DNA from: a virus
Length of the DNA: 64,000 nucleotides
Virus record (IMG/VR): IMGVR_UViG_3300023242_000004
Location: 30,788-94,787 of that record
Reading direction: 5' to 3' (one strand)
Shown here: piece by piece, positions 25,820-34,665 of the stretch
Position numbering within the stretch: position 1 is the stretch's first letter
Layout of the letters: each line of letters starts with the position of its first letter
The notes under the pieces: generated by a model
The model's input: the letters and a program-made list of their open reading frames with translations, nothing else
Database searches by the model: none
What the model was told of the DNA's origin: nothing
Made by a program: the position numbers and the translations under genes

Positions 25820-26206
25820 TTATAGTTTTACTACTACTATGTCTGATGTTGTAAAAACAGCATCTGTTATTGTATATTTTAAAGTGAACACAGCAGCGTA
25901 TTCGCTTTCAGTTGATTCTTCAACCAAAATTTCATCCAATTGTAATTTTGGTAAATAAAGTTTTACTACTGATTTAATTTCTTCTTTAACACCATTTAAT
26001 GTCATCCCATCTTGTGGTTCAAAGATAAATTTTAATAAATCAGTACCAAAGTTTGGTTTATAAAGTCTTTGACCTTTTCTAGTCAATATTATATGTAGAA
26101 GGTCGGCTTTTATCGCTTGACTATCTTCATCATTTAAATCTAAGAAAAAACCTTTGTTACTATTCTTAAAAGGATAATTTATATTTATGTATTTACCGTT
26201 TGCCAT
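25820..26206 (-). CDS. Baseplate sheath initiator (gp25 / GPW-like)
   Basis: IKADLLHIILTRKGQRLYKPNFGTDLLKFIFEP. Confidence 0.9.
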   Translation of the reverse strand: MANGKYININYPFKNSNKGFFLDLNDEDSQAIKADLLHIILTRKGQRLYKPNFGTDLLKFIFEPQDGMTLNGVKEEIKSVVKLYLPKLQLDEILVEESTESEYAAVFTLKYTITDAVFTTSDIVVVKL

Positions 26207-26265
26207 AATTGTGTTTATTTGATAAATATCATACTAAACAATTTTTATAAGTAAATATGGGAAAT

Positions 26266-26292
26266 AAAAAAAGGGTCCCTATTGGACCCTTT
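26266..26292 (-). terminator. Rho-independent terminator after nrdA part 3
   Basis: AAAGGGTCC-aatag-GGACCCTTT followed by a T run. Confidence 0.8.
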
Positions 26293-26309
26293 AATTTGTT
26301 TATCTTTTA

Positions 26310-26927
26310 TTAACTTGAACAACCCACGCACTCAAATTGACTCTCGGTAGGTTTTTCTACTTGTTTTTGTTTTGTCATATCAATAGCTAAATGTTTAGCT
26401 TTCATATCAACGGACTCACTCCTTAAATAATACTGACCAGTTTTAAGTCCTAATTTCCAAGACAAATTATGTGATGTAGTTAATTTACCAACAGTAGGTG
26501 TACTAAAGAAAATATTAAGACTTTGCGATTGGTCAATGAATGGTGCTCTATCAGCAGACATTTCGATTAACGCTTTTTGGGAAATTTCCCAAACTGTTTT
26601 ATACCTTTCTTTCATCTCTGAACTAATAACTGGTATGTTTTGAACACTACCATTATTTTTTATCAATTCACTAAGAATTTCTCTATTCCATAAACCTTCT
26701 GATTCTAAATCTCTAACTAGGTGTTTGTTTACCATAGCGAATTCACCACCAGTCACTCTTCGAACATAAAGATTTGAAGTGAACGGTTCGAAAGCTTCGT
26801 TTGAACCAATTACACGAGCAGAATTATGACTAACACAACCATTTTCCATTATATAATGATTCACGTTTGGTACTTCAATATCCCACGTAGGTTTTATATC
26901 ACCCTTAGTTATTTTTTTTATTTTCAT
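26310..26927 (-). CDS. nrdA: RNR class Ia alpha subunit, part 3 (35-aa IntC-2 + C-terminal extein)
   Basis: MKIKKI...TWDIEV...VSHN|SARVIGSNEAFEP...FIDQSQSLN...LKTGQYYLR...CVGCSS. Confidence 0.92.
   Translation of the reverse strand: MKIKKITKGDIKPTWDIEVPNVNHYIMENGCVSHNSARVIGSNEAFEPFTSNLYVRRVTGGEFAMVNKHLVRDLESEGLWNREILSELIKNNGSVQNIPVISSEMKERYKTVWEISQKALIEMSADRAPFIDQSQSLNIFFSTPTVGKLTTSHNLSWKLGLKTGQYYLRSESVDMKAKHLAIDMTKQKQVEKPTESQFECVGCSS
26823..26927 (-). other. Split intein 2, C-half (IntC)
   Basis: Block F WDIEV and block G HN followed by Ser+1. Confidence 0.9.
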
Positions 26928-27260
26928 AATTTATTCTTTAAAATTTTATTTATTTTTTCTTTATTTATTTTTTCAGAATCCGAAGACCATAATTCTATAT
27001 AGTTACCCCATTTTAAATTACCATCGTGTTCACCCCATTTAATTATAAACATTTCTAAGGTGTGTTTACTTTTATCACAAAATTCTTGGTATTTTAATGG
27101 ACCATAAATTTCGCCATGATTAAAAATAAAACTCTCTAAAGTCCTACCACACTTTAATTTATGTAACCTTACTTTTTCAATAGATTCATTATTCATTAAA
27201 CCTTTTTTTAACCAATACTCAATTTTGAATGGTGATGGTTTGTTAGATATTTTTATATGT
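26924..27260 (-). pseudogene. Internally deleted homing endonuclease relic between IntN-2 and IntC-2
   Basis: The frame stays open upstream of ATG 27196 (SPFKIEYWLKKGL). It has two LExFI..(H/W)GE..G..K(Y/W) repeats like the 373-aa HEG, lacks a nuclease core, and ends EKINKEK like that HEG. Confidence 0.7.
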
Positions 27261-27295
27261 TTTATTAACTACGTACACAACACTTAAACGACCTA

Positions 27296-28282
27296 CTACT
27301 TTTCAAATATATTTAATATATCGTCCGTGGCTACCAAATCAATTACTTCAACCCATATTCCATCATTACCTCTTTTTACTTTGAATTTATGATTTTCAGT
27401 TGCTTCAAAAATTGACCCATCTTCCATTTCTATTTTATAGACAACAGAATGTGCGTTATACTTTATTTTATTAACTTCTTCATACCCATTAATTGTTTTA
27501 ACATTAAAAGCTTTTAAATCTAACCATTGTTGTAGATTCATACTTTCTAATTGTTCCCAATCAATATTGTTTTCTTCTAATATATCTTTAAATGATTTAA
27601 CACCACTTTCAGTATGAATCCTAGTATCAATAACTTGACAACTAGCTGTTGGTGGGCATGTTGTAACTAAAGAGTTTCTAACACCATATTTTTTAATGTC
27701 TTTTCTTAACCCTTTCCAATCATGCATACCAGATAAATTATCTTCAGTCAACCCCCACATTTGCCATTGGAAAATACCTTCAGAAATTGGTGAACCCTCG
27801 TAACCATCATACGTTAACCCAGTTTTTTTAGCTAAAGCACAAGATTCACTTAAAGCATTAAAATAAATCGTTTCAAATATGTCTTTATTTAATTGTCTAG
27901 CTATTTCACCAGTGAACGGTAATTTTAATATAGCAAACACATCTGCTAAACCTTGTATACCAATACCTAATGCTCTTTGTTCTAAACCACCTTTTCTACC
28001 TTCTGGTGTTGAATATTCGTTAACCTCTAAAGCTATGTTTAATGATTTTGTTATTGAACGTGCTACTTTACCCAATCCTATGAAGTCGTAAACTCCATCT
28101 ATAATATATTTTTGAACTGGGATGCTAGTAAGCGTACAAATAGCTGTTGTTTCAGCGTTGGTCGTCTCCATAATTTCCGAACAATTATGTACTAATATAT
28201 CATTACCAAAAAAATTATGGTTATCCTCAACAGTAATATCGTATACTGGTATTTTTTCGTTTAATTTTTCTATTTTTATCAT
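27296..28282 (-). CDS. nrdA: RNR class Ia alpha subunit, part 2 (IntC-1 + middle extein + IntN-2)
   Basis: MIKIEK...VYDITVEDNHNFFGNDILVHN|CSEI...ICTLTSI...RALGIGIQGLAD...GVRNSLVTTCPPTAS|CQVIDT...ATENHKF. Confidence 0.92.
   Translation of the reverse strand: MIKIEKLNEKIPVYDITVEDNHNFFGNDILVHNCSEIMETTNAETTAICTLTSIPVQKYIIDGVYDFIGLGKVARSITKSLNIALEVNEYSTPEGRKGGLEQRALGIGIQGLADVFAILKLPFTGEIARQLNKDIFETIYFNALSESCALAKKTGLTYDGYEGSPISEGIFQWQMWGLTEDNLSGMHDWKGLRKDIKKYGVRNSLVTTCPPTASCQVIDTRIHTESGVKSFKDILEENNIDWEQLESMNLQQWLDLKAFNVKTINGYEEVNKIKYNAHSVVYKIEMEDGSIFEATENHKFKVKRGNDGIWVEVIDLVATDDILNIFEK
27299..27640 (-). other. Split intein 2, N-half (114 aa)
   Basis: Cys1 (CQVIDT) and block B ATENHKF, ending at a stop codon. 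Confidence 0.9.
28184..28282 (-). other. Split intein 1, C-half (33 aa)
   Basis: VYDITV, HNFF, VHN followed by Cys+1. Confidence 0.92.
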
Positions 28283-28287
28283 TTATT

Positions 28288-29034
28288 TTAATTTTTAAAT
28301 TTCCATTTAAAACCACCAGCAGTGGTTCCTTGTTTACAAGCTCTACTAATTCCAGACTTATGTTTAATATTATTCTTTTCAGCTGCTTCAACAGTAGTTA
28401 AGTAAGTGTCAATTTCTTCACCATTTACACTCATTTTAACAACAGTTTTAGCGTTTGGGTTATTTTCTCTAGTATTATTAATAGACATCTTTTTTAAAGT
28501 TTCATCATTAGCTTTTCTACCTAAGTTCCAATGATTACCATTTATTTTAGCTTTATGTGATGGTCGTTCTTTTAAAGATAACCCATACATATTGTTATTA
28601 ACACCAGTAGCGTTTAACCTATGTTTTTCACGTATTTCTTCTTTATTTGGGTTATTAGTAAACGTATCACCACCTAACCCACCTTTAGTTAAATTGGTTA
28701 GAATACCACTTTTATTATGTCTAAAACCCATTATATCTATTAATAAACTTTCAATATCATAAGCGGTTTGTTCTTCTAACCCTTCAACTATTTTTATTAT
28801 TATGGGTTCTAACCCATTTTTTAATATTTGATTAATAACATTTAACTTATAAATATTATTTGTTAAATCTTTATTTTGTTCTTTTATTAACTTTAAATGT
28901 TTTTCTAACCTATTAGAACTATCTTTACCCTTTCCAATATAAAAAGGTTTATTTTTAAAAATATAATTTCCAAAATTATACTCACCAATTTCTCTAGGGT
29001 CCAAGTAAGCGTACACATAATATTTTTTTTCCAT
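28288..29034 (-). CDS. Free-standing GIY-YIG homing endonuclease with NUMOD domains (likely start MEKKYY, 29034)
   Basis: YYVYAYLDPR...PFYIGKGK...RLEKH...E...LTN..GG.GG; NUMOD3-like NNNMYG; C-terminal NUMOD1 ISRAC...TAGGFKWKF. Confidence 0.85.
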   Translation of the reverse strand: MEKKYYVYAYLDPREIGEYNFGNYIFKNKPFYIGKGKDSSNRLEKHLKLIKEQNKDLTNNIYKLNVINQILKNGLEPIIIKIVEGLEEQTAYDIESLLIDIMGFRHNKSGILTNLTKGGLGGDTFTNNPNKEEIREKHRLNATGVNNNMYGLSLKERPSHKAKINGNHWNLGRKANDETLKKMSINNTRENNPNAKTVVKMSVNGEEIDTYLTTVEAAEKNNIKHKSGISRACKQGTTAGGFKWKFKN

Positions 29035-29075
29035 TGTGATTTCCATTATGTATATATACATAATGGAAATCACAA
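29034..29075. promoter_or_regulatory. Perfect 42-bp palindrome over the endonuclease translation start
   Basis: TTGTGATTTCCATTATGTATATATACATAATGGAAATCACAA is its own reverse complement. Confidence 0.8.
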
Positions 29076-29080
29076 AAAGA

Positions 29081-30655
29081 TTAAAATATTTCTAATACAT
29101 CAGTCTCAACTAAATCTTTAGCTAACACATATCCTCTATTTTTTGTGAATATTTGGTGTTCTGGTGTGCAAATAATATGTTTACCAGTTTCCTCATCAGT
29201 TATCTTTAAAACATCAGCTGACTCATTCATTAAGGCAGCATTTGTTATCTTTTTATATTCTGGTTTATTTGTTTCAATATTATAACTTAATACTTCTATA
29301 CCGTGTTCTACATTAAAATCGTTAACAACATCGGAAATATTAAAATCAACTTCCTTACCATGATATTTTGTTTTAATAATTGTTTTACCATCAACACACA
29401 AATTACTAGAGTGAATCATACCAATATTTTTTTGGTTGGATTTCTCATTAACGTGGTCTTTAAAGCACATATATGGCATACCAGTTTCAATTTGTGATTC
29501 CAAAATTTTAAGCCATAAATCATGTGCTTTAATTTTAGTACCAATACCCATCTCTACGGCCTTATTATATTCTTCCTCATACTCTTTACCATAAATCTCA
29601 TAAAATGGCTTTAAACCAGCTTCTTTTATGTCGTTTGGGCAGAATAAATACCAAGCATCATTTGTTTCAACAGCTCTCATAAAATTATTTGGAATCCATA
29701 GTGCTGAAAATAAGTCACGAGCCCTTAAAGTATCATCACCTGTCTTTTTTCTTATATCTAAAACGTCGAAAACATCTTTATGCCATGGTTCAATATAAAC
29801 AGCACAAGAGCCAGGTCTTTTACCTCTTTGGTTCCAGAATCTAAGTGTTTCATTAACAACTTTAAGGTATTTTAAAATACCACCAGCTTTTCCGTTTGAA
29901 TTACCCACATTACTTTCTTTTGAACGAATATTTGAAATAGCTAAACCTATACCTTCTGCTTTTGATGATGATATAGCAATTCTACCTAGGATATCTAATA
30001 ACCCTTCTGTTGAATCATCTGGAACAATCGATAAATTACATGAGGCAATTTGACCAATTGTTGTTCCTATGTTCATTTTTATAGGCGTTGCTGGGCTTTC
30101 TTTTTGATTACTTATGTAATTGTATTTTTCAATAAAATCTTCAGCGTTTTCTGTCACCATAAGAGCGACCCTAACATACATTTGTTGTGGTCTTTCTACT
30201 ATCACGCCATCTTTTGTTTTTAAAAGATATATGTCTTTAAGAGAACACCAACCAAAATAATCAAAATTAAAATCTCTAGAATAATCGATTGTTGATTCGA
30301 TTAACTCTATATTTTCTTTAACTTTATTAAAATACACATCATTCAATAAACCTAAATTATACATTTTTTTTATTGCCTTCATGAACGAGTCATCGGTTTC
30401 TTTATGTAATTTAGTTATGGATATATTTGCAGCCAATTTTGAATAGTCTGGATGATTCATAGCTAATGATTCAGATACGACTGAAATCAAATCATCTAAC
30501 TCATTTGTTGTCATATCATCAGCAATACCTTGCGTAACCTTTATAAACACCTCGTCAGCGTTAACTTTTAACCCTTCGGATTGTTTTTTTATTCTGGTAA
30601 GAATTTTATTTGGGTTAAAATCTATTTTATTACCGTTTCTTTTTATTACTTGCAT
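29081..30655 (-). CDS. nrdA: RNR class Ia alpha subunit, part 1 (ATP cone + N-extein + IntN-1)
   Basis: VIKRNG ATP cone, ERPQQM, SPATP, ASC, QRGKRPG, ETGMPY, HSSNL|CVDGKT. Confidence 0.95.
   Translation of the reverse strand: MQVIKRNGNKIDFNPNKILTRIKKQSEGLKVNADEVFIKVTQGIADDMTTNELDDLISVVSESLAMNHPDYSKLAANISITKLHKETDDSFMKAIKKMYNLGLLNDVYFNKVKENIELIESTIDYSRDFNFDYFGWCSLKDIYLLKTKDGVIVERPQQMYVRVALMVTENAEDFIEKYNYISNQKESPATPIKMNIGTTIGQIASCNLSIVPDDSTEGLLDILGRIAISSSKAEGIGLAISNIRSKESNVGNSNGKAGGILKYLKVVNETLRFWNQRGKRPGSCAVYIEPWHKDVFDVLDIRKKTGDDTLRARDLFSALWIPNNFMRAVETNDAWYLFCPNDIKEAGLKPFYEIYGKEYEEEYNKAVEMGIGTKIKAHDLWLKILESQIETGMPYMCFKDHVNEKSNQKNIGMIHSSNLCVDGKTIIKTKYHGKEVDFNISDVVNDFNVEHGIEVLSYNIETNKPEYKKITNAALMNESADVLKITDEETGKHIICTPEHQIFTKNRGYVLAKDLVETDVLEIF
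29084..29398 (-). other. Split intein 1, N-half (105 aa), NrdA-2/NrdJ-1-like
   Basis: Cys1 and block B ICTPEHQIFTKNRGYV, ending at a stop codon. Confidence 0.92.
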
Positions 30656-30672
30656 ACTTTTATTTATTAATG

Positions 30673-31626
30673 TTAAATTTCTTCATCAAATGAGATTGGC
30701 CCACTTAAATCAGCTGATTTATATTCCGTTGAACGACCCTCGAAAAAATTTGCCTTTGTTTTTAAAGCAATTTGATTCATAAACTCAAAAGGGTTTTTAC
30801 TATTAAATTCTTTATCGCACTCTAATTGTTGTAATAAACCATCAACAACAAACTCTAAATATTGTTTCATAACATTAGAGTTCATACCAATAAGCGAAAC
30901 TGGTAATGATTCAGTAATAAATTCTTTCTCAATCTCTAAAGCAGATAAGAAAATTTCTTTGATTCTTTCTTTAGATGGTTTATCAACTATATGATTATTT
31001 AATAAATGAATAGCAAAATCAGCATGCATAGCTTCATCTCTAGAAATGAACGTATTTGAATCACATAAACCTGGCATTAAACCTCTAGATTTTAAATAAA
31101 AAATACTACAGAAAGAACCAGAAAAGAAAATACCCTCCACAGCAACAAACGCTATTAATCTCTCAACAAAAGATTCAGATTCAATCCATTTTAACGCCCA
31201 TTCAGCTTTTTTCTTAACTGGTGGCATGTATTCAATAGCGTTAAAACATTCTTGTCTTTCTTTAGTATCTTTAATGTATGTATCGATAAGTAAAGAATAC
31301 ATTTGACTATGGATATTTTCCATCATAATTTGAAAACCGTAAAAAAACTTTGCTTCGGTGTATTGAACCTCATTTAAGAAATTTATAGCTAGATTTTCGT
31401 TCACTATACCGTCACTGGCAGCAAAGAAGGCTAACACGTTTTTAACGAAAAATCTTTCTTTTTCAGTTAGTTTATTGTTCCAGTGGTCAATGTCTTTAGA
31501 TAAATCAACTTCTTGAGTTGTCCACATAGCACTTAATTGTGTTTCATACAAATCCCAAATATCTTGGTGTTCAATAGGAAAAAGCACAAATCTGTTTGGG
31601 TTGTTAATTAATATTGGTTCGTTCAT
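30673..31626 (-). CDS. nrdB: RNR class Ia beta subunit
   Basis: [42 protein letters not shown]. Confidence 0.96.
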
Positions 31627-31661
31627 TTTTTTATTAAATTATTATTTTATTTTATTTTGTA

Positions 31662-32150
31662 TTATTGTTGAGTTGGGCTATTTAATATAGTGTTTCTGTT
31701 TTGAGCGGCCGCTAATACTGTATTAACTCTGTTTTGGTTTACTTCGTCTTTATCCATCTTATGTTCCGTTTGACTTCTAGCGCCTTTACTTTTACCCATA
31801 TCTATTTGAATTTTTGCGTTATCAAATCTTATATCTTGAAAGATAATACCATCTTTACCAAATCTAGATTTAAGTATCGCCATTGTCGCAGTACCAGCTT
31901 CTTTTTGGTCTAAGTTTTTCGCTATAGACACAATAAAGTGACCAATTTGACCTTTTTTAATTGAACCACCTATTTGGTTAGCTTCAACCACATCAGCCGA
32001 AATAGAGCTGTTGTGTGTGTAAATATCGTTACCATAAAACATATGTGTGTCTTCTACGGTGATATCAATAGTGTCTTCCTCACCAATTAACTCAATTGAT
32101 TCGATTTCATCCAAATCAAAATTACTTAAATCTAAATTGTGTTTTACCAT
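31662..32150 (-). CDS. DnaB/gp41 helicase, part 2 (IntC + C-extein; likely start MVKHN, 32150)
   Basis: EEDTIDITVEDTHMFYGNDIYTHN|SSISADVV...ILKSRFG. Confidence 0.9.
   Translation of the reverse strand: MVKHNLDLSNFDLDEIESIELIGEEDTIDITVEDTHMFYGNDIYTHNSSISADVVEANQIGGSIKKGQIGHFIVSIAKNLDQKEAGTATMAILKSRFGKDGIIFQDIRFDNAKIQIDMGKSKGARSQTEHKMDKDEVNQNRVNTVLAAAQNRNTILNSPTQQ
32010..32150 (-). other. Split intein 3, C-half (gp41-8-like, acidic)
   Basis: DEIESIELIGEEDTIDITV...THN followed by Ser+1. Confidence 0.9.
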
Positions 32151-32155
32151 TTTTT

Positions 32156-33277
32156 TTATTTTAAAAAGTTTAAACATTTCTCTAATGTTTTTTCTTTATT
32201 TATTTTGTATTCACTTTCTTTAATCCTTAATATTTTATAACCCTTACCAATTAAAAACTCATCTCTTACCATATCTTTAGATTTTTGTTCTGGTTTAGAA
32301 TGCCAATAATCACCATCAAACTCAATTATTTTATCACCACATTTGAAATCGACAAGTATAGTAAAAATATTTTTTATGTTAACGTAGAAATACTCTTCAC
32401 CATTTAATTCCGCAAATTTAACATTAATTTTATCAATATCTGTTAATTTATTAAATAATAACCAAAATAATTCCTGTGATATCTTACTATAATAGACACC
32501 ACTTCTAAATTGTTTATCTAAAAACTCAATAAATTTTATTTTACCAACTTTACAACCATATCTATCGATAAATGATTGTAATGACGTTTTTGACATAGTG
32601 GTACAATATTCTAACCATTTAACTTTACCATGTTTATCACCATATAAATCAATAAAATATTTTTCACTAAATCGATATTTTTGTTGGTTGTTACGTTTTA
32701 TCCATTTTTGATAACCAACTTTAACCCCATCTCTATCTTGATATTCAACTAAAGTTCTACCATTTCTATATGGTTTAATTTTCCTACGTTCTTTTTGGGT
32801 CTCAATTTTCTTAGTTAAACGTTCTTGCCATTTTTTAGTACCTTCAGTCTCACCATATCTTTCAATGCAAGCTTCAAATCCCCAAGGTGTTTTTGAATTA
32901 ACTAAATATTCAGTATATTTATTAACCCCATCTTCTTTACCATATTTTTTAATATAACCATCTAACGTATGTGCAAATTTAACATATAATTCTGATTTAA
33001 CCAATTCAACATTTTCTTTACCATACCTAATTTCTAAAGCATATTCAGAAGCGATATCATTTTTTAAAACGTTGATGATGATATTAAGTCTTTCTAACCA
33101 ATCACCATCAACATTAAATTTAATAAAATCATGTATATTTTTCATTCTATTCTTAATTCTTACATTATCGTAAACTTCTAATATTTTACTTATTTCAGTC
33201 TTTTGACATTCTGTAACTTTAGAAATATCAATATCCCCAAATATTTTTCTACTTAATAATTTTTCTATAGTTATCAT
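32156..33277 (-). CDS. Free-standing Vsr-like (DUF559-type) homing endonuclease with N-terminal repeats
   Basis: Repeats (K/R)YGxxxGxxK(W/Y); C-terminal VDF..IIEFDGDYWH...KD..RD...GYKILRIKE. Confidence 0.85.
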   Translation of the reverse strand: MITIEKLLSRKIFGDIDISKVTECQKTEISKILEVYDNVRIKNRMKNIHDFIKFNVDGDWLERLNIIINVLKNDIASEYALEIRYGKENVELVKSELYVKFAHTLDGYIKKYGKEDGVNKYTEYLVNSKTPWGFEACIERYGETEGTKKWQERLTKKIETQKERRKIKPYRNGRTLVEYQDRDGVKVGYQKWIKRNNQQKYRFSEKYFIDLYGDKHGKVKWLEYCTTMSKTSLQSFIDRYGCKVGKIKFIEFLDKQFRSGVYYSKISQELFWLLFNKLTDIDKINVKFAELNGEEYFYVNIKNIFTILVDFKCGDKIIEFDGDYWHSKPEQKSKDMVRDEFLIGKGYKILRIKESEYKINKEKTLEKCLNFLK

Positions 33278-33280
33278 ATC

Positions 33281-33302
33281 TTTTCATATAAATATATGAA
33301 AA
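33281..33302 (-). promoter_or_regulatory. Hairpin containing the TATTTATA motif, 3 nt before the endonuclease ATG
   Basis: TTTTCATATA-TT-TATATGAAAA. Confidence 0.7.
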
Positions 33303-33336
33303 TCACATAAAAAGTAAACAGCAATAGAAAAAAAAA

Positions 33337-34665
33337 TTATTTTTTGGTTAATAAACTATCACCAACTGTTAACCCACTCTCAATAGATAAAAACTTACCA
33401 TCAGAAGTTGGGAAAAAATGTTTTTTAGCTACTTTAATTTCCTTACCCGATTTTAATTTAATTTTATAAACTGGTTGTTTCGCAATAGGGAAAATATGTG
33501 ATATTGTTTTATATCCATCATGAGTCAAAATTTCGTCACCTAATACAGCATCTTTTATCTCAATAAGTCCATTATTTTTCGTAACTATCTTAGTATCAAG
33601 TGAAACACATCTATTACCTTGAACAGCCGTCCATCCAGCTATATCTAGTTCAGATAAAAGCGTTTCAAATTGTCGCATAACACTACCCTCACCAGCGTTA
33701 ATATCATCAAATTTTTTCGATGGTTCGACACAATCAATATAATCCAATAAAATTATATCTGGTCTAAAACCTTGTGCTATCAACTTTCTAATATATTGTC
33801 TAATCATTGGAATTGTAGTACCATCGCTAGAAAACTTTTTAAGTTTAAGATTTTCATGAGGTAATTTTGCAGCAATTTCAAATATTTCTTCTTTGTGTAA
33901 ACTTAAACTATTTAGTTCATACCCAGAAGAACAAGCTAAATGTTTTCTTTGGATAACTTTTGGGTTGTCTTCGAAAAATATTTGTAAAACTTTATAACCA
34001 TCTGCCATTGCGGTGTTAGCTAATTTTGTAATCATGGTTGTTTTTCCAACACCGAATGGTGCTAATATTACAGCTAACTCACCTCTGGATAACCCACCAT
34101 CCATGACTTCATCTAAACCTTTTATCCCAGTAGCAATTGGTTTTCTAAAATCATCAACTAAAACATGTTCTATACCATCAAAAACGTTAAAACCATCATC
34201 TTTAGCATCACCATGCTCAAGTGCTTTTCTTATAATAGCTTCAACTTGTTCGTAATCTTCAAGGTTACCTCGTTCGATGATTTTATTAACTTGCATCATC
34301 GATTTTCTCATTTCTTGTTGTTTACAAAACCTCATCGCCATATCTTGGACTTTCAAGGTATCGTTCAAATCAGCTTCTTGAACTTTACGTAGTTGGCTGA
34401 TAACGTATTTTCTTTGGTATTCGTCCTTAACATCTTCTAGTAACCTGAATTCAAGACTACCAACATCTGGGACAATATCATCGGTAACCTTTGCATCTTT
34501 TATTGTTGCAACTATTACTCGTAAATACTGGTCTTCAAAGTAGTTTGGGTCAACGATATCTAATATAGAATTTGCAAACTTTCTATCCGTTAAAAATTGC
34601 GCTATAAGCCTTAATTGGTAGTCGTGTCCTAAATAACCAAAACTATTTTTATCTATTTTTGTCAT
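33337..34665 (-). CDS. DnaB/gp41 replicative helicase, part 1 (N-extein + IntN)
   Basis: Walker A APFGVGKTT, Walker B ILLDYID, WTAVQGNR|CVSLDT. Confidence 0.93.
   Translation of the reverse strand: MTKIDKNSFGYLGHDYQLRLIAQFLTDRKFANSILDIVDPNYFEDQYLRVIVATIKDAKVTDDIVPDVGSLEFRLLEDVKDEYQRKYVISQLRKVQEADLNDTLKVQDMAMRFCKQQEMRKSMMQVNKIIERGNLEDYEQVEAIIRKALEHGDAKDDGFNVFDGIEHVLVDDFRKPIATGIKGLDEVMDGGLSRGELAVILAPFGVGKTTMITKLANTAMADGYKVLQIFFEDNPKVIQRKHLACSSGYELNSLSLHKEEIFEIAAKLPHENLKLKKFSSDGTTIPMIRQYIRKLIAQGFRPDIILLDYIDCVEPSKKFDDINAGEGSVMRQFETLLSELDIAGWTAVQGNRCVSLDTKIVTKNNGLIEIKDAVLGDEILTHDGYKTISHIFPIAKQPVYKIKLKSGKEIKVAKKHFFPTSDGKFLSIESGLTVGDSLLTKK
33340..33609 (-). other. Split intein 3, N-half (90 aa, gp41-8-like, basic)
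   Basis: CVSLDT...KQPVYKIKLKSGKEIKVAKKHFFPT. Confidence 0.9.

Follow-up and report, generated by a model that had tools for sequence, protein, structure and literature searches.

How is the alpha subunit of ribonucleotide reductase (RNR) made when one of the pieces into which its gene is divided encodes a protein with half of an intein at each of its two ends? This question is raised by nrdA in a 64,000 nucleotide stretch of viral DNA, positions 30,788 to 94,787 of the IMG/VR record IMGVR_UViG_3300023242_000004, here called the window. NrdA is encoded there by three consecutive open reading frames (ORFs) on the minus strand, 29081-30655 (part 1), 27296-28282 (part 2, the middle fragment) and 26310-26927 (part 3), which follow one another in native order. 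The middle fragment begins with the C-terminal half of one intein (IntC-1) and ends with the N-terminal half of another (IntN-2). We consider it likely that the RNR alpha subunit is made as three polypeptides which would be joined by two independent trans-splicing reactions, the 328 amino acid (aa) product of the middle ORF forming the central block. The components of the middle fragment are as follows.

27296-28282, minus strand: middle fragment ORF, 328 aa, beginning at the first start codon that follows a stop and ending at the next stop.
28184-28282, minus strand: IntC-1, 33 aa (aa 1-33; MIKIEK...VYDITV...ILVHN), at the N-terminus of the middle fragment; Pfam Intein_splicing positions 124-155.
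27641-28183, minus strand: middle extein, 181 aa (aa 34-214), part of the RNR barrel, beginning with the thiyl-radical Cys (CSEI) and extending as far as the phosphate loop (PPTAS).
27299-27640, minus strand: IntN-2, 114 aa (aa 215-328; CQVIDT...TENH...NIFEK), at the C-terminus of the middle fragment.

An earlier reading of the letters of this DNA (the sequence-only reading) had placed IntC-1 at the front and IntN-2 at the end of one chain, and both the division of the ORF and the Pfam matches agree with this topology: the middle fragment matches Ribonuc_red_lgC (E=7.7e-52) and, in two stretches, Intein_splicing (E=9.1e-11), and its extein aligns to residues 429-606 of human RRM1. IntN-2 starts with the expected Cys1 (CQVIDT) and carries a block B of the form TENH. 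In an alignment of 32 diverse middle fragments, the relatives being 44-79% identical to that of the window, Cys215, His298, Asp15 of IntC-1 and the His32-Asn33 pair are invariant, as are I4, V13, I16, V18, F24 and V31 of IntC-1. Of the 120 protein clusters with the best scores, 62 have the same layout, at 41-79% identity to the middle fragment, and about 30 others are two-piece forms composed of IntC-1 and the rest of NrdA; the names of the cluster members reveal nothing beyond "ribonucleotide reductase alpha subunit". Given the invariance of the splicing residues together with this recurrence, the IntC-extein-IntN layout read from the sequence at 27296-28282 is confirmed as real, far beyond chance.

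The three-piece, two-intein layout is also common in phages. It is present in the IMG/VR loci L010, L011, L017 and L019, of which L011 has both of the genes that can occupy the gaps between the pieces and L010 has neither; L020 and L022 are split at the second site only, and in L023 the first site is split and the second intact. Among cultured phages, Klebsiella phage KP13-7 carries the IntC-1, extein and IntN-2 combination in its gene 00041 (341 aa). Gene 00039 of this phage ends in IntN-1, 00040 encodes a GIY-YIG protein, 00042 is a gap ORF and 00043 encodes IntC-2 followed by the C-terminal extein; the middle fragment and both of the intein-bearing pieces are annotated as "hypothetical protein". 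In phiKp_21, a sister of KP13-7, the first site is uninterrupted and intein 1 is absent.

The two outer parts of nrdA in the window supply the partners that the middle fragment would need.

29081-30655, minus strand: part 1 ORF, N-extein and IntN-1.
29399-30655, minus strand: NrdA N-extein, aa 1-419 of part 1, ending HSSNL; Pfam ATP-cone, Ribonuc_red_lgN and Ribonuc_red_lgC.
29084-29398, minus strand: IntN-1, 105 aa (CVDGKT...TPEH...LEIF), cognate of IntC-1; Pfam Intein_splicing positions 10-92.
26310-26927, minus strand: part 3 ORF, IntC-2 and C-extein.
26823-26927, minus strand: IntC-2, 35 aa (MKIKKITK...PTWDIEV...GCVSHN), the first 35 aa of part 3, cognate of IntN-2.
26313-26822, minus strand: NrdA C-extein, 170 aa (SARVIGSNEAFEP...YYLRS...ECVGCSS); Pfam Ribonuc_red_lgC positions 393-523.

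The N-extein contains the ATP-cone, the all-alpha domain and the first section of the barrel, the C-extein aligns to human RRM1 from residue 607 on, and the three extein parts are colinear with the nrdA of uninterrupted relatives. Joined, they would give an NrdA of 770 aa (419+181+170), which is the length of nrdA in L014-L016. The predicted junctions, HSSNL/CSEIME and PPTAS/SARVIGSNEAFE (a slash marks the point of joining or insertion), are identical to the uninterrupted sequence in five close relatives from IMG/VR, L012-L016, where nrdA is 769-784 aa long without stops and reads ...HSSNLCSEIME... and ...PPTASSARVIGSNEAFE... at these points. The set of RNR catalytic motifs is complete, with NLCSEI, the barrel Cys, YYLRS and the C-terminal CxxC all present.

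Selection on the pieces was estimated as the ratio of nonsynonymous to synonymous substitution rates (dN/dS) against L010, the closest three-piece locus. The ratio was 0.07-0.08 for the outer exteins and 0.18 for the middle extein, and 0.25, 0.24 and 0.18 for IntC-1, IntN-2 and IntC-2, respectively. A value of 0.73 obtained for IntN-1 was discarded, as intein 1 of L010 is of another subtype (38% identity) and is inserted one residue downstream. On this comparison of sequences purifying selection on the exteins is strong and that on the intein halves is close to that on the middle extein. With their splicing residues invariant in relatives and their dN/dS low, both inteins appear to be active.

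The first of the two inteins is of a known type. It has the canonical class 1 residues (C1, TPEH, D15, H32-N33 and a +1 Cys), and the +1 Cys aligns to C429 of human RRM1, the thiyl-radical cysteine. Its insertion site, SNL/C, is the same as that of the published split intein NrdA-2 from the Global Ocean Sampling (GOS) metagenome (PMC7090010). With the NrdA-2 sequence taken from the supplement of Pinto et al. 2020 (PMC7090010) and the matches counted by eye, identity is about 66% over IntC and about 60% over the distal two-thirds of IntN, whereas the N-terminal third of the allele in the window differs. As judged from these sequences, intein 1 is a homologue of the NrdA-2 type. In several relatives (P0006, P0020, P0030, P0034 and others) the site is shifted by one residue so that intein 1 lies after the catalytic Cys, and the junction reads HN/SEI or HN/CEI, the +1 residue having changed to match. 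The gap between IntN-1 and IntC-1 holds two further features.

28288-29073, minus strand: gene for a free-standing GIY-YIG homing endonuclease, between the two halves of intein 1; Pfam matches to LEM-3_GIY-YIG (E=3.5e-12) and NUMOD3.
29019-29090, without strand: palindrome with 36-nucleotide arms, 83% complementary, and a spacer of 0 nucleotides, between the IntN-1 stop and the start of the GIY-YIG gene.

Homologues of this endonuclease gene occupy the same place in L011, L017, L019 and L023.

The second break maps between S606 and T607 of human RRM1, in the loop by which RNRs bind the substrate phosphates. Here too the canonical class 1 residues are in place (C215, TENH with H298, D16, H34-N35 and a +1 Ser); across eight loci IntC-2 does not vary at K2, K4, K12, P13, W15, D16, Y25, N29, V32, S33, H34 and N35, and Ser or Thr stands at +1. 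That intein 2 does not resemble characterised split inteins, as had been suggested, holds up: the best match of IntN-2 among PDB sequences was to DnaE inteins with E=0.08, and BLASTP gave no alignment between IntN-1 and IntN-2 at E<=100. Relatives are numerous all the same: among 1.84 billion representative proteins a cutoff of E<=1e-3 yields 241 clusters and one of E<=1e-10 yields 64. In 119 of the 150 best clusters the match ends at the C-terminus of the protein, which indicates a split form, and in the other 31 it is internal; the sequence-only reading had pointed to contiguous versus split homologues as a question, and both occur, the split form being dominant. Members of the family reside in the large subunits of various RNR types, B12-dependent enzymes among them, with junctions such as ...PTAS/C, ...APTA/C, ...MPSES/C, ...APTG/C and ...KPSG/C. 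Contiguous mini-inteins (P0044, P0052, P0053 and that of Campylobacter phage F207) are colinear in alignment with IntN-2 followed by IntC-2, the annotated "intein" of IBB_35 is a contiguous member too, and against these the split point of intein 2 falls exactly at ...NIFEK/MKIKKI. The contiguous members must splice, since their host enzyme would otherwise be nonfunctional. By its sequence, then, intein 2 belongs to a large and mostly split family at the phosphate-loop site of RNRs, of which no characterised member was found.

Some variation around this second site should be noted. In F207 and P0032-P0045 it is shifted by one residue, P(T/V)A/C...HN/T or S, again with a matching change of the +1 residue. 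In L021 (3624-5891; IMGVR_UViG_3300037566_000130) nrdA ends in a half of the IntN-2 type and neither IntC-2 nor the C-extein was found in about 5 kb downstream; another part of this 166-kb contig may hold the coding sequence of the C-terminal piece. The RNR N-terminal fragments P0201, P0130, P0121 and P0162 end in an IntN-2-type half and carry contiguous LAGLIDADG inteins upstream, so that a single RNR gene can hold inteins of both the split and the unsplit kind. In the window, the space between the halves of intein 2 is occupied as follows.

26924-27196, minus strand: ORF of 90 aa, an endonuclease remnant in the gap of intein 2; no Pfam match.

By BLASTP, aa 23-84 of this ORF align to aa 165-226 of the 422-aa gap ORF of L020 (E=2e-9) and aa 66-86 to aa 396-416 of the same protein, and it is this match to two separate parts that marks it as a remnant with an internal deletion. 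At ATGA its stop codon overlaps the part 3 start codon. A gap ORF of 412-494 aa is kept at this site in L011, L018, L019, L020 and L022, and the gap gene is absent in L010 and L017. Pfam gave no family for the site 2 gap ORFs of L011, L019 and L020 or for the gap ORF of KP13-7 and phiKp_21, so that these are called endonucleases by position and by an HNH-like motif seen by eye.

Certain relatives are broken further. L017 (809-7034) and L019 (634-8116) have a third split intein about 140 residues upstream of site 1, the IntC of which stands on an ORF of 80-84 aa with only four extein residues (GGGK) before the stop. A free-standing endonuclease gene follows this ORF, and the next ORF restarts at M-KRKGS without an intein half, which brings the total to five nrdA-derived ORFs, three split inteins and one intein-less break. 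KP13-7 has an additional intein-less break of nrdA after ...KSCSQG (genes 00037-00038; L090:78-1457), with an ORF of 128 aa in the gap which has the appearance of a putative small free-standing endonuclease.

In the explanation which we favor, that of two trans-splicing reactions, IntC-1 (33 aa) would pair with IntN-1 (105 aa) at the end of part 1 and the exteins would be joined at SNL/C, and IntN-2 (114 aa) would pair with IntC-2 (35 aa) at the start of part 3, with joining at PTAS/S in the phosphate-binding loop. Double splicing would yield a class Ia NrdA of 770 aa. The two non-cognate halves on the middle chain would fail to complement each other because they are of different intein families. 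The sequence-only reading had called the middle fragment SICLOPPS-like, after designs which reportedly date from 1999, and the order IntC-target-IntN on one polypeptide is indeed that of SICLOPPS. The likeness ends there: SICLOPPS requires the cognate halves of one intein, by which the chain is cyclised, whereas the halves in the window are non-cognate, IntN-2 giving no BLASTP alignment to IntN-1 and the partners of both halves being found on parts 1 and 3. The middle fragment is therefore not a SICLOPPS construct.

The reasoning that had been applied to cross-reaction is nonetheless sound. Pairing of IntC-1 with IntN-2 would cyclise or polymerise the middle fragment and pairing of IntN-1 with IntC-2 would skip it, and since each half keeps its own native flanking residue there would be no chemical barrier to either. 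IntC-1 and IntC-2 match at 12 of 32 positions, only in the generic blocks F and G, and the distance that separates these blocks is not the same in the two. A value of 34% identity between IntN-1 and IntN-2 from a global alignment was rejected as inflated by gap placement, BLASTP giving no alignment. From these sequences we infer splicing by both inteins and no cross-reaction between the two.

The further claim, that the two pairs must have been selected for strict mutual orthogonality, is weakened by the distribution of IntC-1. This half is identical between three-piece and two-piece proteins (P0006 and P0030; P0034 and P0109) or 97% identical between them (P0004/P0013, P0005/P0015 and P0045/P0115), such sharing being seen in at least three lineages, and either intein occurs without the other in relatives (including KP13-7 versus phiKp_21, L020/L022 and L023). 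With the same IntC-1 found in the presence and absence of intein 2, and with the inteins occurring separately, no co-adaptation is visible. Unrelated inteins are usually orthogonal in any case: of the 16 unrelated split inteins in the largest matrix to have been published, 15 showed mutual orthogonality (PMC7090010), and NrdA-2, which splices in cis (about 75-98%) and in trans, accepted no partner but its own when 12 were compared in vitro, being orthogonal to the 11 others (PMC7090010 supplement). The shared IntC-1 and the published matrix together indicate that orthogonality is most likely the default expected of two unrelated inteins, and hence an ordinary outcome of their divergence and not a specially evolved trait.

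Several observations weigh against so clean a separation, and they lend some credit to an alternative in which the pairs are only partly orthogonal, with a cyclised, concatenated or skipped by-product that is either tolerated or limited by fast cognate capture and co-translation from one operon. The charges of the two IntN halves have the same sign (-7 for IntN-1 and -9 for IntN-2), both IntC heads are rich in Lys (MIKIEK and MKIKKITK) and the IntN tails are alike (DLVETDVLEIF in IntN-1 and DLVATDDILNIFEK in IntN-2), so that with this shared polarity charge would be unable to separate inteins 1 and 2. In sequence every hybrid intein would have a full set of catalytic residues and its native flanking residues, and the identity of IntC-1 with and without intein 2 means that a sign of co-adaptation is absent. 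Some cross-association may thus occur, and within one chain it is hardest to dismiss. An AlphaFold2 (AF2) model of the middle fragment alone, run without a positive control, left IntC-1 unplaced (pLDDT 33-43, as compared with 80-97 for the extein and 70-90 for IntN-2), which agrees weakly with IntC-1 not docking on IntN-2. Cross-splicing is however rare among unrelated split inteins (15 of 16 orthogonal; PMC7090010), similarity between IntN-1 and IntN-2 is undetectable by BLASTP and the block F-G spacing differs, and we regard partial orthogonality as unlikely. A separate point against the favored explanation is the decay of the intein 2 endonuclease, by which this element is no longer mobile here.

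Two other explanations would dispense with splicing or with a working enzyme. One or both inteins might be non-splicing, their halves acting as high-affinity docking modules of a non-covalent three-chain enzyme comparable to that of Aeromonas phage Aeh1. Split NrdA can work in the absence of a covalent link (PMC3045599; PMC2677866), and this enzyme tolerates non-covalent assembly, given that L017, L019 and KP13-7 have an extra intein-less break in the same gene beside a free-standing endonuclease. Docking alone, on the other hand, needs none of the Cys1, block B His, block F Asp, His-Asn and +1 residues that stay unchanged even between deeply diverged relatives; the two breaks both fall in loops of the active site, one at the thiyl Cys and the other at the phosphate loop, and the contiguous members of the intein 2 family must splice. 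We consider this explanation improbable. Less probable still, and in our opinion very much so, is that nrdA is decaying under selfish elements and that the working reductase has been lost, as suggested for some Campylobacter phages, whose nrdA has been read as degenerating (PMC3653736). It is true that in F207 an N-terminal nrdA part is not obvious next to the C-terminal piece and that the site 2 endonuclease in the window is a remnant, but all three nrdA ORFs of the window are intact, the exteins are under strong purifying selection (dN/dS 0.07-0.18), the RNR catalytic motifs are all present with nrdB directly upstream, and the layout is conserved in dozens of lineages. Two independent trans-splicing reactions therefore remain the explanation that we prefer.

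Split inteins, fractured phage genes and three-piece ligation in the laboratory are all known already; a natural protein made from three gene products by two different split inteins was not found described in full-text searches, whose coverage leaves out most subscription journals. A search for Alcyoneusvirus and inteins gave only the split PolB intein of phage MIJ3, which is not relevant. The nearest precedents are the fractured genes of Dassa et al. 2009 (PMC2677866), with NrdA-1 to NrdA-7 having one break per gene and all seven at a single site. These loci share with the window a split intein which breaks phage nrdA directly in front of the thiyl-radical Cys, a gap occupied by a GIY-YIG gene, location on one strand, a hairpin ahead of the endonuclease gene (hairpin regions upstream of the gap endonuclease ORFs are described in PMC2677866) and an endonuclease end which abuts the downstream IntC. 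In the window, as in such genes, each break has an intein N-half at the end of the ORF before it and a C-half at the start of the ORF after it, and site 1 has a free-standing homing endonuclease gene (28288-29073); at site 2 the 90-aa remnant stands in place of an intact one, and the gp41-7 locus also lacks a gap endonuclease gene (PMC2677866). What sets the window apart is that nrdA is interrupted once more, 181 residues further downstream and by a split intein from a different family, so that one fragment bears an intein half at each end. Engineered tandem trans-splicing (e.g., PMC7090010) uses a middle block IntC(A)-cargo-IntN(B) and two ligations to make one chain, as in the window, but is a laboratory design, whereas the window holds a natural and conserved arrangement with the pair co-resident over long evolutionary time. 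The mini-inteins of the Campylobacter phages vB_CcoM-IBB_35 (annotated "intein"), F207 and CP220 resemble intein 2 in their phosphate-loop site, in 33-39% identity to IntN-2 and in a colinear TWDIEVP...ENGC(I/V)SHN, and differ in being unsplit, in having no gap gene and in an insertion one residue upstream (PTA/.../T). In Aeh1 a homing endonuclease gene likewise cuts nrdA into separately translated pieces, but their assembly is non-covalent and intein halves are absent (PMC3045599).

The host record of the window is a virus sequence of 94,787 bp with a CheckV completeness of 27%, and the window is AT-rich (GC about 30%). Its baseplate wedge protein has identity of only 27-29% to those of Flavobacterium and Microcystis myoviruses, and megablast of 26000-32500 against phage records gave as its sole match 47 bp of Tenacibaculum phage pT24, from which it appears that no close cultured relative exists. 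All genes surrounding the three-part nrdA are on the minus strand, and two features flank it.

30673-31626, minus strand: nrdB, directly upstream of nrdA part 1; Pfam.
26270-26292, minus strand: terminator-like hairpin just past part 3; 9-bp stem with 5 GC pairs, followed by a T-run.

This hairpin is the sole terminator-like site on the minus strand between 26000 and 32000, and none was found between the nrdA pieces. Upstream of the window an intein-like match was seen in L003 (G000:C1:24364-24681); Pfam gave no family for 815 aa of its host gene.

A helicase gene of the DnaB/gp41 type next to nrdB is also fractured (31662-34665, minus strand). Its N-terminal part of 442 aa ends in a 90-aa IntN (CVSLDT...), the gap encodes a 373-aa Vsr-like endonuclease (DUF559/MTES_1575) and the C-terminal part is preceded by IntC-3 (...DITVEDTHMFYGNDIYTHN/SS), which is 53% identical to IntC-1 and thus closer to it than IntC-1 is to IntC-2. 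The charge polarity of this intein is reversed (IntN +5, IntC -8), so that charge could separate the helicase pair from the RNR pairs.

The arrangement found here occurs often in phage metagenomes, and one cultivable phage, Klebsiella phage KP13-7, has it as well. Engineered three-piece trans-splicing in tandem with two orthogonal split inteins was reportedly achieved by Shi and Muir in 2005, and the intein 2 family, with its Ser or Thr at +1, is a candidate to be combined with NrdA-2-type inteins for the ligation of three pieces in one pot. The window offers a natural test case of intein pairs of the same polarity which would avoid cross-reaction despite non-cognate halves being tethered on one chain. 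With two split-intein pairs in its nrdA and a third in the neighbouring helicase gene, and with three pairs and an intein-less break in the nrdA of relatives, it is tempting to suggest, tentatively and as an idea more apt to fail than to hold, that multiply fractured phage RNR genes form a natural library of split-intein pairs tested side by side by evolution, in which inteins 1 and 2 would be told apart by a specificity code other than charge polarity, one legible in these sequences and transferable to other inteins. For the phages themselves, the finding gives a view of how an essential gene, invaded again and again by homing endonucleases, can end up in three to five pieces and yet survive.

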